64,000 nucleotides of DNA from a virus (taxonomy: Duplodnaviria > Caudoviricetes). The notes beneath the pieces were generated by a model. The model was not told where the DNA came from and did no database searches. It saw only the letters and a list, made by a program, of their open reading frames with translations. This document shows positions 1,657 to 23,732 of the stretch, one piece after another. The stretch's first letter is position 1, and every line of letters starts with the position of its first letter. The translations under genes were made by a program, and so were the position numbers. Location of the stretch: IMG/VR virus record IMGVR_UViG_3300012664_000155, positions 925 through 64,924 of that record; one strand, given 5' to 3'.

Positions 1657-4092
1657 TTATCTTGGTTCAAATCCAGATAAGTCGAATCCGTCAAGGCTAT
1701 CATCCTCTGACTCGAAGTTAACTGGTGGTAAGTTATTTTTTCTTTGATCGATTAATTTAGATTGAGCTGTAGCTTGCTTCTTAACTCGATCGTCTTTAGC
1801 TAGTTCTTTCTTCTCTTCACGTTGCATAAGATTTTCAGTCTCAATTCCTTTAAGTTGCATATTATAGTTAAACTCTAACTGCATTAATTCTTTCTTGAAT
1901 TCAACCTCCATCTGCATCTTCTGCATCTCTAATTGCATCTCAGTTTGCTTAACAGATGATTTAACCTGAGCTTCCATCTGAATTTGCTGTGCCTTAGCTT
2001 GTGCTGCCGCTTGTTGAGATTGCATATTAATCTCTCCCTGCTGTTGCATTTTTTGCATTTCAGCAGCTTGACGTTTCTCATCGCGTTTCTTTCTCTTAAC
2101 CTTAAGTAACTCATTAGCAAGCTTTAAGTTTTTAACTAAACGAATATCAATAGCATCCTCTAAATCAATTTGATCTCTAGTTAATGCCATCTGTATATTA
2201 GCCTCAGTCTGTTGCTTCTCTTCTTCGTCTGGCTCTAGCTCAATGAATATACCAAATGAATGTAAATAAAGATTACTAATATCCTCTAATATAGATAGAT
2301 TGTATTTACCAATCTGCATTGCAAACTCTTCCTTGAAATCTGCATACTTAAGAATATCTGAAATTCTTAAAGATAAACAAATAGCTAACTTTCTAGTAAT
2401 ATCTAAACCACCATTCAAGATGTGTCTAGTAGCTGTGTTACTATTTAATGCTGCTAATTTCTGTACACCAACTAATGCATCAGGGTTAGGAGTAGATCCA
2501 TCTCTAGCCTCATTTAAACCTGTTACATCACGTATCATCGATAAGTTGTAGTTGTATACATTAATCAATGCAGCCATTTTACTTTGACCGCTATTTGTAC
2601 TTAACTCTTGAATTGGAATACGAGCGTTGTTAAACTCTCCCTCTCCTGTATAACTACGACCAACGACACTACCTGTCTGGAAGTACAATTTCAATGCATC
2701 CTCTGGAGTATACGCAGCTCCTGTACCTAAGTCAACCTCATTGATACCATCAGCATCTATGAATACCCCATCAGGAACAACTCTAGCCATTACCTGTTGT
2801 AGCTTCAAGTGAGTCAACTGAATCTGATCAGCGAAAGGAATCATTCTCTTCACTAATGAATCGATACGACCTCTGTATATACGAGGAGCAGAAACAACAT
2901 AGTTAGGTAAAGCATTCTGAGTTGCAGCCTCTGGTCTAACCATATTCTTCAATAACTCCCACTTAACCAATCTGTTACTTCCAAGTACAATTATACCATC
3001 GTACCATACATCTTTGATAACCTGAACCTTAGTAAATCTATCTTCTTCAGTTGCAGGTGGATTGAATGTGTCATCTTTCTTGATAACTCTCTCTCCACCA
3101 TTATCTAATTGTTTTTTCTTGTAGACAAAGTTTTTATTTGTTTTATAGTTAAAAAACAATAAGGTAACCATGTCCTTAGAAAAGGCATCATCTTTCAAGT
3201 TTCTTAATACAGGGAAGTAGTTATACCATGCGCTTGCATAGTTCTGAATTTCAAGCAAATCTTCTTGAGTCAATGTAGGGTCAATCTTCTTAAGCTCAGT
3301 AAAATGAACTTGTTTAACCTCTCCAAAGTAATAACAATCTGAGTGATCAGGTTTCTCCGTATAGCTATGAACCAATACAGCAGGGTCAACGTACTCAACA
3401 GTAACTCCACTTCCTTGTGTGAAGCTATGTTTAACAGCCCCCTTACCAATACTAGCTAAGTCATAGTCAACCATTGGTTTAATCGAATGGCTGTAGTCAT
3501 TAGTTTCTAGTAATGTATTAATAGCAATCTCTTCAGCAATCTCAATACTTGGTTTGTATTTCAACTGCATATACAATTCTAATTCTTCGTCTGTTTCTGG
3601 AATATCTTGCTCAGGCATTGTAAACGCATCTACACCACCCTTTTCCTTCATAATAGTTAAGATGTCCTTACCTACCATATTTTTCTCAACATTCTCCTGG
3701 AACTTGTTCTTCTTCTCAGCAGACATGATATCCTGAGCTGAAGCCTTGATAGTATACATACGGTCATTCATACCGTTAACTACAATATCAACAAATTTAG
3801 GAATGATTGGAACAATAGACCAGTCTAAGTTCATGTGCGACAAATCACCATCAATTGCTAACTCACCCTTATACTTAGCTACAGGTTGCTCACCTCTTGC
3901 GTAAAGTCTAAGTCTATGATATTCAGCGAATTGATCGTAGTATCTACAGCTATCATTGCCGACTCTTTTGAACCATTCTGATTGAATAGCTCTACCCACT
4001 TTCAGACCGTAGTCCTTAGTTTGTTTTTCTGAATCAGATGCTAACTGATCTGGGAAACCATAGTTTCCTATGTTTATAGATGGTTTATCCAT
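1657..4092 (-). CDS. portal protein
   Basis: 811 aa, LDWSIVPIIPKFVDIVVNG motif typical of Bacteroidota podovirus portals, Gln-rich coiled-coil C-terminus, adjacent to terminase. Confidence 0.8.
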   Translation of the reverse strand: MDKPSINIGNYGFPDQLASDSEKQTKDYGLKVGRAIQSEWFKRVGNDSCRYYDQFAEYHRLRLYARGEQPVAKYKGELAIDGDLSHMNLDWSIVPIIPKFVDIVVNGMNDRMYTIKASAQDIMSAEKKNKFQENVEKNMVGKDILTIMKEKGGVDAFTMPEQDIPETDEELELYMQLKYKPSIEIAEEIAINTLLETNDYSHSIKPMVDYDLASIGKGAVKHSFTQGSGVTVEYVDPAVLVHSYTEKPDHSDCYYFGEVKQVHFTELKKIDPTLTQEDLLEIQNYASAWYNYFPVLRNLKDDAFSKDMVTLLFFNYKTNKNFVYKKKQLDNGGERVIKKDDTFNPPATEEDRFTKVQVIKDVWYDGIIVLGSNRLVKWELLKNMVRPEAATQNALPNYVVSAPRIYRGRIDSLVKRMIPFADQIQLTHLKLQQVMARVVPDGVFIDADGINEVDLGTGAAYTPEDALKLYFQTGSVVGRSYTGEGEFNNARIPIQELSTNSGQSKMAALINVYNYNLSMIRDVTGLNEARDGSTPNPDALVGVQKLAALNSNTATRHILNGGLDITRKLAICLSLRISDILKYADFKEEFAMQIGKYNLSILEDISNLYLHSFGIFIELEPDEEEKQQTEANIQMALTRDQIDLEDAIDIRLVKNLKLANELLKVKRKKRDEKRQAAEMQKMQQQGEINMQSQQAAAQAKAQQIQMEAQVKSSVKQTEMQLEMQKMQMEVEFKKELMQLEFNYNMQLKGIETENLMQREEKKELAKDDRVKKQATAQSKLIDQRKNNLPPVNFESEDDSLDGFDLSGFEPR

Positions 4093-6320
4093 TATTTTTC
4101 TAATTGACTTGTATTGCCACTATTATTGTATCTTGCAAAATTAATATTTATTTTTGATTTCTCAATTTGCTTTATGAATGTATGTCTTCTGTTTGCCATA
4201 ATTGCAAGACCCGAACTAATAGAGGCATCATGCTTTGTACGATTGTTTATGTCGAACCTAGCCCAATCCTCAAGAGTTCTAGTAAAATACATAGATCCGA
4301 TAGTATCTGTATCTCTGTAAGTACCCTCTGAATCCATACCAACATACTCCTCGATGTACGAGTTAATAGAAGACGCGTGAGCCTGTTTAACATCCTCAGA
4401 TGAGTTAGGTATTCCCCCAAGCTCTATCTCTGTCTTAGACAGCTTAGAAATGTGTTTATCAGGTCTGTTCATAGAAAAACCTCTATAACCCCTGTTCTTT
4501 AAATGGTAAAGAAGTCGTTGCTTATTATTCTCAACCAATACAGGCATACCATAGAAAACACAAGCCATCAACACATCCTCAAAGAATATCTCAGCAGTTT
4601 GTGGTCTAGCTATGTACTCAAGGAAGAACTCATTGGTAGGAGCTTTGTCCATATGGAACTTAGTCATCCCATGAAGCGCTCCATTAGATCCACCACCTCC
4701 AACAGTTCCAGATATATCGTAAGGGTCACACCCAAACGAGCCAAGGTGATCATTCCCAGGGAACTTCCTTCCGTTCTTCACAATCACATTATTTGCCATC
4801 GAACCTGTTGGCATCCACGAAACTAAGAACCTTCCGTTCTTTTCAGGAGACCAAACTACTTTCGTGTCTTCTTGACCATTCATCCAATGGAAGTTTCCGC
4901 GCGTAAGGAACTTTTCTTTGATCAGAGAGTCATTATAATCTATCTGTTGATATATCTTAGTTAAATTAAATAAAGATTGCTTAGACTCATCTCTAAATGC
5001 GTGAGACTCTGTTCTAGGGAACTGTCTGTAGAACTCATTCAATGCATCCGAGTCATTCTTTAATGCAGCAACCTCATTGTTCCAATAAGATATTACACCA
5101 ATCTTTATAGGCTCTCCATCAATTCCAGTCACAGGCTTCTCAGGATCTTCGAATACAGGCATTCCGTACTCATCGATATAACCCTCGAAGTTCCACTCCA
5201 TAGGAATGAATAAAGAGTATAAACCACTCTTAGTCTGACCGTTACCTGATCTTATCGCAGGGTTAGAGTCATTGTATAATTTTTTGTAATTCTCACCACC
5301 TTTATCCAGTGAGTTAGATGTAGATCCCATCATGCACTTACCAATAATCTTACTACCCAAACGAAGACAGGTCTTTCTAACTCGCCAACCATTAAGTATG
5401 TTATTAGGTCGCTCTAACTTAGCAGCCTCATCCTCAACCAAGAAGAGCAACTTCTCACCATCGTAAGAGTTGTCCGCTGTATTCTTCCAGTCAATCGTTG
5501 TATCAAGTCCTTCTATCTCCTCCTCATGCTCTTCGTTCATGTTCTTCTTGGTAATCTTAGATGCAGGAACACGGAACGCGATCTCTGTCTTTGGATTATC
5601 CATACCATCCTGAACTGGCTTGAAGAAGAATGGATAGTTTCTAATAATTGGCACAACCTTATCCGTAAACATCTTCTTAGCATCCGATCCTGTCTTAGAA
5701 CATATACCAAGACGTGAATCCTTAGCTAGCGTACCGATATTAACCGTCTCTGCTGATGACATAAACGAGAACCCAGAACGTCTGTTCTTTAGGTAGCACA
5801 TACCAAAACATCTTGAGTCAGCCTTACAAGCTTCCCAAAAGATAAAATATATTCTATTTGATTCACGAAAGTCAGGTAGACCAACATCAATCTTGGTCCA
5901 CTGCAAGTACATATAGTGAGTACCTGTCAAGTAAGTAGGCTTGCTGTTATTCATAAAGAAGTGACCAAACTCTCGTCTGTCAAACTCCTCCTCTACAAAG
6001 TCTACCCACTTAGCCTTGAACGCGTTATCTCTTCTGTTCCATTCAAAGATAGTCTTTACCTTTGACAGCTCCTGTGGGTAATCATAAGGAATCCATTTAT
6101 TAGCTCCCTTTGGTAATTTCTCTGGAGCTAGTGGCAAACCGATGTATAAACCATTGATAAGATAAACCTCACCAACCGTTCCATCCTTAGATATCACAAC
6201 AAGGTCATACTTCTCATCGTATCCATACTTCCATAACTTCTTCTTATTCCTAGAATTTATGATGCTCTGAGATACGTGCTTTGTATCGATCGTATATAAT
6301 GCGTAATTACTTTCTACCAT
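4092..6320 (-). CDS. terL: terminase large subunit
   Basis: ATPase motifs (LKNRRSGFS, LVEDEAAK, MMGSTSN) and C-terminal nuclease (GCDPYD ... HDASISSG); track start 6350, 6320 more likely. Confidence 0.9.
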   Translation of the reverse strand: MVESNYALYTIDTKHVSQSIINSRNKKKLWKYGYDEKYDLVVISKDGTVGEVYLINGLYIGLPLAPEKLPKGANKWIPYDYPQELSKVKTIFEWNRRDNAFKAKWVDFVEEEFDRREFGHFFMNNSKPTYLTGTHYMYLQWTKIDVGLPDFRESNRIYFIFWEACKADSRCFGMCYLKNRRSGFSFMSSAETVNIGTLAKDSRLGICSKTGSDAKKMFTDKVVPIIRNYPFFFKPVQDGMDNPKTEIAFRVPASKITKKNMNEEHEEEIEGLDTTIDWKNTADNSYDGEKLLFLVEDEAAKLERPNNILNGWRVRKTCLRLGSKIIGKCMMGSTSNSLDKGGENYKKLYNDSNPAIRSGNGQTKSGLYSLFIPMEWNFEGYIDEYGMPVFEDPEKPVTGIDGEPIKIGVISYWNNEVAALKNDSDALNEFYRQFPRTESHAFRDESKQSLFNLTKIYQQIDYNDSLIKEKFLTRGNFHWMNGQEDTKVVWSPEKNGRFLVSWMPTGSMANNVIVKNGRKFPGNDHLGSFGCDPYDISGTVGGGGSNGALHGMTKFHMDKAPTNEFFLEYIARPQTAEIFFEDVLMACVFYGMPVLVENNKQRLLYHLKNRGYRGFSMNRPDKHISKLSKTEIELGGIPNSSEDVKQAHASSINSYIEEYVGMDSEGTYRDTDTIGSMYFTRTLEDWARFDINNRTKHDASISSGLAIMANRRHTFIKQIEKSKININFARYNNSGNTSQLEK

Positions 6321-21700: not shown

Positions 21701-21826
21701 TAGTCGAGGACAGGATTTGAACCTGTACGATAACTTATGAGCGATCTTAACGGGTCTTTCGAGGTTACTCACGTTATCCTTACTATTAACCTTTATTCAT
21801 GCGTCTACCAATTCCGCCACCTGACT
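21701..21826 (-). ncRNA. tRNA-Leu-like RNA (126 nt) lacking a canonical anticodon arm
   Basis: Leu-type 5' end AGTCAGGTGGCGGAATTGGTAGACGC, T-arm ACAGG-TTCAAAT-CCTGT, acceptor CCTCGACT plus A73; middle replaced by ATGAATAAAGGTTAATAGTAA and a 50-nt hairpin. Confidence 0.8.
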
Positions 21827-22659: not shown

Positions 22660-23315
22660 AAAAGGGGGTCTAGCGTCATGGAATTAGAAATATGGAGGTG
22701 TTGGGTAATATACCTATTCAACGTAAAAAATCAAAAAAGAAAACCGACTTTAATTTTGATGGGGGGGTGTTGATTTCGAACTTTTTCCGCTAGATTTTCA
22801 GCTTTTCTGTAGGGGGTACATCCATCCATACAGCCCTATGTTTATTCGTTGCTGTGGTTTCTTCTGTCGTTCGATACGCTACATCGCCCTGCCTGCCTAC
22901 GTTTCAGCCGATATATAGTTCTATTTAACATAATGCTTGTTATAAGACAGCTAAACATAACTCATTGAACTACAGATAGTTAGCTCTGCCATTTCACCTG
23001 GATTTACCTATCTTCGTTCGTTATCAACATTTTAAGCGTCAAAATTGCACCCATTTTCAGCCCTATTTTTTGCCCCCTATACGCGAGCGCGCGTTATTGA
23101 ATCCTGCGCCCATGCGTCGCGTCTTATCGAGTGATTTAGCCGTAAAATGGGCTTGTTGCCCTTATTTCATCGAGGTTTACAGAGCTTTTGAATTATATCT
23201 GTCCAAATATCCCCCCAAACAACAAATTTTAAAATTTTTTTTCGTTCATAACTCCTTTAAAATCAATCGATTACAACACCGAACAAAAAATAATTGAAAA
23301 AAAATGTCAAAAAAG

Positions 23316-23346
23316 TTTGGAGATATAAACATTAGCACTACCTTTG
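23316..23346 (+). promoter_or_regulatory. first early promoter (-33 TTTG 23316-23319, -7 TACCTTTG 23339-23346)
   Basis: Perfect Bacteroidota consensus with 19-nt spacer at the head of the plus-strand block. Confidence 0.8.
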
Positions 23347-23351
23347 CTGAG

Positions 23352-23668
23352 CAGTTCAACGGAATTGTATTCAAGTTTTGACTTATGTGTACAAGGGTAA
23401 TTAAAAGGGCGAGACAAAGCGCACCACCATACAGGACACTCAAAACATTATTAGTTCTTTGATTACGAGATGCATGTGAGGATTCACAACGAAAGGCAGA
23501 ACCGCGGTTTGAGTGTACCGCGACAACAAAACACCCGACATAGGCTAAGTCGGTGAACACAGAGCCAATCCCTCCTAGGGGTATTAATACTAGGACGCAA
23601 TGCTCAGCGGAGGTAACTAAGATGGGTCGAGTAACTGAGGTAGAAAGCAGGTAATCGAAAAAAGCTTA
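23352..23668 (+). ncRNA. putative ~315-nt structured early leader RNA
   Basis: No credible plus-strand ORF; hairpins CGCGGU/ACCGCG, CCGAC/GUCGG, UCCUAG/CUAGGA, CUCAG/CUGAG, GUGA/UCAC, UUGUA/UACAA; ACACUCAAA/UUUGAGUGU long-range pairing. Confidence 0.5.
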
Positions 23669-23712
23669 AGCGGATGAGTGTCCGCTCTGATGATTCCAAA
23701 AGGATGAAAAGC
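23664..23712 (+). ncRNA. type III hammerhead ribozyme
   Basis: GCUU-A / AGCGGA-UGAGUG-UCCGCU / CUGAUGA / UUCC-AAAA-GGAU / GAAA-AGC: core, stems I-III and UUA cleavage triplet all present; U10.1-U11.1 mismatch. Confidence 0.85.
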
Positions 23713-23732
23713 AAACTTTAAAATTTAATAAG

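Follow-up and report, generated by a model that had tools for sequence, protein, structure and literature searches.

Hammerhead ribozymes have been known in phages since 2011, and their purpose is still debated: does this kind of punctuation liberate a functional RNA, or does it trim and protect the messenger RNA (mRNA) that follows? The question is raised by a 64,000-nucleotide (nt) stretch of phage DNA (Duplodnaviria; Caudoviricetes; positions 925 to 64,924 of IMG/VR virus record IMGVR_UViG_3300012664_000155), here called the window, which covers nearly all of a 64,924-base-pair (bp) genome with direct terminal repeats (IMG/VR). Its single early-region ribozyme sits exactly between a conserved, non-coding RNA of ~317 nt (the leader) and the first early gene, and sibling phages have a transfer RNA (tRNA)-like element at that junction. 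An earlier, sequence-only reading had described the tract as a precisely ended, immediate-early structured RNA of ~315 nt, and had suggested that it might serve as an anti-defence decoy or protein sponge. The best explanation, to which we assign a probability of about 0.5, is that the tract constitutes the non-coding first ~317 nt of the rightward early/replication transcript and comprises two modules, a promoter-proximal one and a ~200-nt body released at its 3' end.

The two ends of the leader

The element at the 3' end of the tract has a hammerhead core (CUGAUGA at 23687-23693 and GAAA at 23706-23709) with a 6-bp stem I (AGCGGA/UCCGCU, loop UGAGUG), a 3-bp stem II (UCC/GGA, loop AAAA) closed by a U.U, and a 4-bp stem III (GCUU/AAGC); stems I and II are capped and stem III is open. 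Its A15.1-U16.1 pair (U23667-A23709) is invariant in 53/53 members of the family described below, and the non-G nucleotide at H17 is A23668. Against the Rfam model RF00008 (clan CL00010), the element scores 21.6 bits, below the gathering threshold of 48.5, because the model penalises both the short stem III and the U.U at 10.1-11.1, which stands where the usual G10.1-C11.1 pair is expected. The stem UUCC-NNNN-GGAU recurs in 99 phage loci, which marks the U.U as a family trait and not as decay. This variant constitutes a blind spot of detection: some 100 phage loci in IMG/VR, in both layouts, score less than half the RF00008 threshold.

The exact core (CUGAUGAUUCCNNNNGGAUGAAA / CTGATGATTCCNNNNGGATGAAA) was found in 99 IMG/VR viral contigs (L030-L128), whose matches comprise 74 distinct sequences, 52 of them in the type III layout of the window and the others in a type I layout with an identical core. 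In an ungapped alignment of these 52 members and the window, for which pairing in stem I, and not that in stem III, had been used for selection, 689 of 689 pair cells hold standard pairs, and there are 179 double-sided changes, whereas shuffles gave 42, none of 500 reaching the observed count, and slid controls gave 10-38. Stem III covaries at three of its four pairs, the fourth (U-A) being invariant, as the ribozyme requires, and the window matches the family in both conserved loops (UGNGUN in loop I, NAAA in loop II). A relaxed descriptor, written after the motif had been seen, has one match in the window where 0.025 would be expected per 64 kb, and the element is the only hammerhead-like one in the scanned interval 19400-44000. 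Given the presence of its exact core at 99 phage loci and the strong covariation of stems I and III there, the window element is, judged by its sequence, a true member of a widespread phage type III hammerhead variant, and the cut after A23668 proposed by the sequence-only reading is borne out, as a prediction, by this 99-locus family with its 100% pairing and its 179 double-sided changes. An intrinsic terminator called on the minus strand at 23687-23668 by a consensus scan was rejected, being the complement of hammerhead stem I plus the A-run of the leader.

Most hammerheads of this family are plain intercistronic elements that lie 20-50 nt after an open reading frame (ORF), and about a quarter have at least 230 nt upstream that hold no ORF of 60 amino acids (aa) or more. 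Many type III members among L035-L125 have a conserved hairpin, GUGUCUUCAAAGACAC, ~10 nt upstream of the cut; cleavage would leave it at the 3' terminus of the upstream piece, where it may be protective. An unrelated phage (L121, minus strand) has, ~750 nt upstream of its hammerhead, a layout like that of the window: three CATTCGTCGAAG repeats that look operator-like, a TTG-N-TAGATTTG promoter, an ORF-free leader of ~400 nt, the hammerhead and the first gene. Its leader is without similarity to that of the window, and its type III hammerhead shares the GCUU/AAGC stem III.

At the 5' end, TTTG-N19-TACCTTTG has the layout of the Bacteroidota -33/-7 promoter type. The strict pattern occurs at four sites in the window, as against 1.27 expected, and each precedes, at short distance, a gene in its own orientation. 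The -33 TTG and the -7 TAnCTTTG do not vary among five related contigs, whose spacers do, so that the promoter named by the sequence-only reading is both present and conserved in its boxes. The start at 23352, a few bases past the -7 box, is predicted from the position of that box.

Between these ends, the tract is non-coding on the + strand: no ORF longer than 33 aa occurs in 23352-23732, and neither stop-codon reassignment nor alternative genetic codes opened a + strand frame between 23352 and the first gene. The earlier description of the tract as ORF-free thus holds for the + strand, and a 139-codon frame on the minus strand (discussed below) is without protein-level selection. No Rfam 15 covariance model, in a set that included GOLLD, ROOL, 6S, transfer-messenger RNA (tmRNA), ribonuclease (RNase) P and riboswitches, matched 23352-23663 at its gathering threshold or at E values up to 10, ARAGORN found no tRNA or tmRNA in the tract, and the sole Rfam match at this locus was the weak hammerhead one. 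Searches for further copies by distant-mode blastn against a phage GenBank collection returned no match; exact-block scans of IMG/VR and 185,579 genomes returned chance matches alone (unrelated GC-rich phage genes and two unrelated metagenome-assembled genomes); and a metagenome scan with the neighbouring 264-aa protein found one distant locus, which is without the leader RNA.

Relatives, covariation and the 3' junction

Phages with ~80% protein identity in the neighbouring genes (L002 to L008; whole records G001 to G008) do not have the leader RNA. Closer contigs were found through a large protein collection (L009 from ENA, L130 and L131 from Logan, and L018, L019, L020 and L133), and L009 and L130 carry the whole leader; as L131 is identical to L130, there are three distinct copies, including that of the window. 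In downstream genes, L018 to L020 share 97% identity with the window, yet of the leader they have only the 5' 35-115 nt in common with it: L018 shares the first ~115 nt, and L019 and L020 only 35 nt around an invariant block. By these comparisons the leader is a mosaic of a 5' module, common to all relatives that have the promoter, and a ~200-nt body that is swapped out in the closest relatives.

The 5' module holds two elements at fixed positions after the start. The invariant block AAUUAAAAGGGCGAGACAAAGCGCACC, unique in the window, is identical across relatives although its flanks differ, and, never varying, it yields no covariation. The boxA-like GUUCUUUGA follows ~30 nt after this hairpin block in all leaders (29 nt in the window). 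The consensus of boxA is GYTCTTTAANA (PMC5725501), and GUUCUUUGAUU at 23454-23464 agrees with 9 of the 10 specified positions of GYUCUUUAANA, a gammaproteobacterial consensus. The ribosomal (rrn) boxA is UGCUCUUUAACA in E. coli and AUGAUCUUUGAAA in B. subtilis, where a small 5' hairpin immediately precedes it (PMC13753749). GUUCUUUGA mismatches boxA by a G for A at position 8 and, in relatives, by a U to A; the motif was noticed post hoc, and the 9-mer is common by chance (88 occurrences in 2.36 Mb of loci, ~0.01 per 317 nt). That it might load Nus factors is therefore a lead and not a finding.

Eight local helices were followed across the three copies, namely the hairpins listed by the sequence-only reading minus UUGUA/UACAA, plus the 5'-terminal hairpin, the invariant-block hairpin and a GUAA-capped mini-stem. 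All 107 of their 107 pair cells hold standard pairs, no stem is disrupted in any copy, and compensatory double changes occur in four pairs (23475/23488, U-A to G-C; 23506/23519, G-C to U-A; 23578/23590, G-C to A-U; 23611/23618, A-U to U-A), as against 0-1 in slid controls; 8 of 500 shuffles were as high. In L130, two deletions and the extra substitutions are confined to the loops of hairpins 23503-23522 and 23535-23553. The covariation in related phages to which the sequence-only reading had looked is thus present at a depth of three distinct copies. All six of its hairpins are in the sequence, and three of them (GUGA/UCAC, CGCGGU/ACCGCG and UCCUAG/CUAGGA) have compensatory changes; the stems CCGAC/GUCGG and CUCAG/CUGAG are invariant, and UUGUA/UACAA was rejected, three of its five pairs being broken in L009. 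Also rejected were an RNAalifold helix (23568/23584), which is broken in L130, and the global long-range pairing of the minimum-free-energy (MFE) structure, which has five broken pairs in L009, all in long-range or weak helices. Placed on a fold of the window alone, the differences from L009 comprise two compensatory, two one-sided conservative and five broken (P for at least two compensatory, 0.013), and helix-based covariation tests on the window and L009 gave P values of 0.015-0.06. All the evidence, at this small depth, points the same way: the leader is a string of short hairpins under selection, and a compact global fold is without support.

The rate of change of the body also sets it apart from its surroundings. 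The window and L009 differ at 17 of 279 ungapped nt (divergence 0.061), and dS (synonymous divergence) in five flanking genes is 0.32-0.90, such that the body changes 5-10 times more slowly than the synonymous sites of neighbouring genes. In 50-nt bins, identity is 88-96% over 23400-23649, ~85% in flanking genes and 80% in the promoter region. Eight of the 17 differences in the body fall in pairs that keep pairing, two of these in robust 5-6-bp hairpins. The claim of a non-coding RNA without an Rfam family is accordingly sustained, and the segment is selectively maintained.

Homology of the window with L009 and L130 stops at 23663, 5 nt before the ribozyme cut, and the next element in L009, L130 and L018 is, in place of the ribozyme, a tRNA-like minihelix of 45 nt, an element missing from the window. 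It consists of an acceptor stem of 5 bp and a T stem of 6 bp with the loop UUCGAUU, lacks an anticodon arm and ends in ..CACCACUAAC. In the relatives, minihelices are placed where modules of the early operon meet, at L009:2764-2808, L130:1030-1078, L018:~790-835 and L010:4436-4480, as well as in L016 and L017 (minus strand), and in L010, L016 and L017 the minihelix precedes a 50-aa gene. Pairing is complete (55 of 55 cells) with four compensatory pairs, to which L130 adds another by inspection; in Rfam, the minihelix has an 11-bit tmRNA match alone, in which the whole middle of the model is skipped. Given the known minihelix substrates, the minihelix would be a target of RNase P/Z, and an RNase P-type cut would free the upstream RNA; the 3' junction therefore appears, from its sequence, to be a processing site in L009, L130 and L018 too. 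With the conserved module ending at 23663 and the minihelix at the same junction, one non-coding module would stop at a processing signal in either context, a ribozyme in the window and a presumed RNase P/Z substrate in the relatives. The defined ends claimed by the sequence-only reading are thus both recovered, the 5' end through a conserved host-type promoter and the 3' end through a hammerhead beside which the conserved module stops.

Further downstream in L009, L130 and L018 come a 72-73-aa gene, a type I hammerhead and a homologue of the first gene of the window. This type I variant (CUGAUGA-U-GACY..RGUC-GAAAC) has an extra U after A9, between A9 and G10.1, and lies between a stop codon, which it follows immediately, and the next gene. 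It occurs at L009:3040-3090 and L018:~1071-1121, in L019, L020, L133 and L132, and at seven more IMG/VR loci (L023-L029). Stem II covaries (GACC/GGUC vs GACU/AGUC), 10 loci show free covariation in stems I and III, and the match to RF00163 reaches only 18.8 bits. In a sibling phage (L010), a type I hammerhead (3982-4040) lies right after a 113-aa first gene and is followed by ~390 non-coding nt (4040-4433) with a terminator-like hairpin and then by the tRNA-like minihelix; this non-coding stretch may be another bounded RNA.

Coordinates of the leader, its elements and its neighbours in the window
Feature	Position	Strand	Basis or conservation
Bacteroidota-type promoter, TTTG (-33) N19 TACCTTTG (-7)	23316..23346	+	sequence motif
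Non-coding leader RNA, ~317 nt	23352..23668	+	5' end predicted; 3' end is the predicted ribozyme cut
5'-terminal hairpin GUUC-AACG-GAAU	23354..23365	+	kept in L009 and L130, one-sided G-U to G-C; not in L019 or L020
Invariant 27-nt block AAUUAAAAGGGCGAGACAAAGCGCACC, hairpin GCG / loop AGACAAAG / CGC	23399..23425	+	identical in window, L009, L018, L019 and L020
boxA-like GUUCUUUGA	23454..23462	+	GUUCUUUGA in window, L009 and L130; GUUCAUUGA in L018, L019 and L020
Hairpin UGUGA-GGAU-UCACA	23475..23488	+	U-A to G-C compensatory change in L009 and L130
Hairpin CGCGGU-UUGAGUGU-ACCGCG	23503..23522	+	G-C to U-A compensatory; 2-nt deletion and substitutions of L130 in loop only
Hairpin CCGAC-AUAGGCUAA-GUCGG	23535..23553	+	stem invariant; 1-nt deletion and substitution of L130 in loop
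Hairpin UCCUAG-GGGUAUUAAUA-CUAGGA	23573..23595	+	G-C to A-U compensatory change in L130
Helix CUCAG/CUGAG around GUAA-capped mini-stem (23611-23618)	23603..23639	+	outer helix invariant; inner A-U to U-A compensatory
Type III hammerhead, predicted cut A23668/A23669	23664..23712	+	core and stems, family covariation
First early-operon gene, 55 aa	23733..23900	+	homologue comes after type I hammerhead in relatives

The leader heads the rightward early/replication operon and lies in a long divergent region with few genes. Genes left of ~21,600 run leftward and include GroEL, the portal protein and two tRNAs; the rightward genes, from 23,733, begin with many small ORFs and later include a DnaA_C-type helix-turn-helix (HTH) protein, a GIY-YIG endonuclease, a PD-(D/E)XK nuclease, a BT4734-like primase and an SNF2-type helicase. 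The label "early" given by the sequence-only reading agrees with this content (small ORFs, DnaA_C HTH protein, primase, helicase). Two other elements of the divergent region and its surroundings were noted. At 21702-21825 on the minus strand lies a tRNA-like gene (22.7 bits) whose anticodon region is interrupted by a long insertion; ARAGORN makes no call on it, and relatives have it too (L009:975-1055 and L004:2456-2544, both on the minus strand; 37.2 and 36.9 bits). In addition, 100 non-coding nt at 22900-23000, 350-450 nt upstream of the promoter, are 92-98% identical to L009, the top value in the divergent region, and may be an operator or origin element.

Proposed release of an accessory RNA and its alternatives

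Under the explanation that we consider best, host RNA polymerase would start at ~23352, shortly after the -7 box, and the leader would fold into short hairpins joined by A/C-rich linkers. As its family membership predicts, the hammerhead (23664-23712) would cut after A23668, leaving a leader with a 5' triphosphate and, given the chemistry of this ribozyme class, a 2',3'-cyclic phosphate, and, for the first gene, an mRNA that starts at 23669, bears a 5'-OH and is headed by the folded ribozyme. The 5' module, up to ~23462 (5' hairpin, invariant block and boxA-like GUUCUUUGA), would probably act in cis on the transcribing polymerase, a speculative assignment. The body (23463-23663, ~200 nt) would be a swappable accessory RNA whose hairpins are under selection, released at one junction by the ribozyme in the window or by a tRNA-like, RNase P-type signal in L009 and L130, and would most likely work in trans after release by binding a protein. 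Such a stand-alone, trans-acting body, to which we lean tentatively at somewhat under even odds, is favoured over a purely cis-acting leader because two contexts share one predicted release point for this body, because its conservation is strong in the phages that have it, and because the closest siblings carry unrelated bodies in its place. Circularisation of the leader by RtcB, by comparison, is unlikely, because a single flanking ribozyme leaves it with a 5' triphosphate and not the required 5'-OH.

Several observations weigh against this explanation. Complete relatives (G001 to G004) are without the RNA, so the leader is dispensable; its three distinct copies make the covariation tests shallow (P 0.015-0.06; 8 of 500 shuffles); and the high identity to L009 and L130 could partly reflect recent exchange of the segment. 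In the single sequence, the MFE of the leader is no lower than that of shuffles (-69.9 vs -70.9 +/- 5.2 kcal/mol, z 0.20), and short hairpins number five where 2.6 are expected (P 0.16), such that the sequence-only reading's picture of a tract packed with hairpins does not extend to an RNA more stable than shuffled sequence. The window has no protective hairpin beside the 3' end, unlike many members of the hammerhead family, and its ribozyme, of predicted activity, has a U.U in place of G10.1-C11.1. Nor is any particular partner indicated, as both a repeated loop motif and a target in the phage are absent: no k-mer is clearly enriched in the leader (the top 4-mers, GGUA and AUUA, occur five times each where 1.7 are expected), GGA occurs five times in 317 nt, the hairpin loops hold, by reading, no common motif, and a search for antisense or complementary targets inside the phage gave nothing above chance. 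The leader accordingly does not resemble a sponge of the CsrB/RsmZ type, which carries many copies of one motif, GGA, in its hairpin loops, and the proposed decoy or sponge role gained no support here. A more elaborate version, in which a constant promoter-proximal handle, a swappable ~200-nt body and interchangeable hammerhead or minihelix punctuation form a new kind of cassette from which the body, once free, acts in trans within minutes of infection to decoy or soak up a host protein (one that serves defence or RNA decay, for example), is in our judgement improbable, at roughly one chance in five; if it were true, the differing bodies of sibling phages would reflect different hosts or defences.

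The most serious competitor, which we hold to be unlikely on balance and yet well ahead of the remaining ones, is that the tract is from end to end a 5' untranslated region whose work is confined to transcription: the invariant hairpin and GUUCUUUGA would load Nus-type factors or a phage regulator and render the early transcript Rho-resistant, the rest would be structured spacer, and the hammerhead would then discard the leader, leaving an mRNA whose 5' end is defined and protected. Only the hairpin block and the GUUCWUUGA motif indeed recur, at fixed positions after the start, in all leaders with the promoter, the motif resembles boxA consensus sequences (PMC5725501, PMC13753749), a long untranslated leader is a natural Rho target, and the plain intercistronic setting of most family hammerheads also fits. 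The frequency of the 9-mer by chance and its recognition post hoc speak against it, as do the U to A change of L018 and L019 at a core boxA position and the lack of any terminator following on the + strand, and it leaves unexplained both a ~200-nt body at 94% identity with compensatory changes and one 3' processing point kept in two downstream contexts. For at least the 5' third of the leader, a cis role during transcription is a live alternative. That the tract is instead a non-functional mosaic spacer, with recombination filler, identity to L009 and L130 from recent exchange, and chance hairpins, is improbable by a wide margin. The region is a recombination hot spot with differing bodies in the closest relatives, the MFE z of 0.2 and a hairpin count not above chance would suit filler, and complete relatives do without the leader. 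However, nearly half of the differences between the window and L009 in the body (8 of 17) fall in pairs that keep pairing, L130 adds a compensatory pair and loop-only insertions or deletions with no stem disrupted in any copy, and in two contexts a processing site falls at the boundary of the module.

Least probable of all, and very nearly negligible in our estimate, is a small hydrophobic protein encoded by the minus-strand frame at 23246-23670, with the + strand features incidental. In the window this frame runs for 139 codons without a stop (104 aa if counted from its GTG), and in L009 and L130 for 110-114 codons, despite two deletions in L130, whose lengths in the loops (1 + 2 nt) restore the frame; by a rough estimate, the chance of such an open frame is ~0.01. 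Its nonsynonymous divergence (dN) is 0.061 and its dS 0.071, however, and the resulting dN/dS of 0.86, as against 0.11-0.20 in four of five neighbouring genes, is not protein-like, so that a minus-strand gene under purifying selection on its amino-acid sequence was rejected. Its amino-acid identity (88%) is lower than its nucleotide identity (94%), the reverse of what is seen in well-conserved neighbours (the 264-aa and 80-aa genes), and the differences between the window and L009 lack codon periodicity (4, 7 and 6 by position modulo 3, by our own count). The frame has no ATG start and overlaps the + strand promoter, its C-terminal third is not conserved in L009, it had no match in a PHROG search, and gene calls on other contigs pass over it; the antisense of an A-rich strand is T-rich and would be expected to yield hydrophobic residues. 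The open frame is thus most likely a by-product of the A-rich sense strand.

Known systems and what the leader may mean

The closest precedent for removal of a leader is the haloarchaeal virus HF2, in which, as in the window, a hammerhead lies upstream of the first ORF of the early polycistronic transcript; the 5' end of the early mRNA maps within three nucleotides of the hammerhead cut, showing that the leader is removed (PMC3088659). HF2 differs in that it infects archaea, its ribozyme is salt-dependent and contains an insertion in the core, and no conserved structured upstream leader is described for it (PMC3088659). Hammerheads in phage intergenic regions, clustered around single genes in prophages and phage operons, are established (PMC3088659). 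Such clusters likewise cut polycistronic RNA, as relatives of the window do with the type I element after the 72-aa gene, whereas the window has, in the scanned interval 19400-44000, a single ribozyme that would release a non-coding RNA and not a cistron.

The order of a promoter-proximal hairpin and, ~30 nt on, GUUCUUUGA at the start of a phage early operon is reminiscent of rrn leaders and lambda nut, but the boxA match is imperfect and common by chance, no N-like protein has been identified and no terminator is nearby. Like GOLLD and ROOL, the leader is a phage-borne, ORF-free RNA of several hundred nt beside a tRNA-rich region; it differs from them in having no Rfam 15 match, in being much smaller, in its simple hairpins and in its three distinct copies. 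Processing of non-coding RNAs by tRNA-like 3' elements is known from MALAT1-mascRNA in mammals, and the stable RNAs C and D of phage T4 are co-transcribed with tRNAs. The junction in L009, L130 and L018 is comparable, as it is followed by a covarying minihelix of acceptor stem plus T arm, where the window has a ribozyme instead. In the synthetic insulator RiboJ, a hammerhead removes a promoter-derived leader and stays as the structured 5' end of the mRNA, which insulates and stabilises messages; the layout in the window is similar, but natural, and the leader to be removed is itself conserved.

The ribozyme of the window thus belongs to a known class, and the leader RNA is an orphan without a described family. 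Should its body turn out to act in trans as an early RNA, the mostly protein-based early host-takeover and anti-defence factors of Bacteroidota phages would gain an RNA example.

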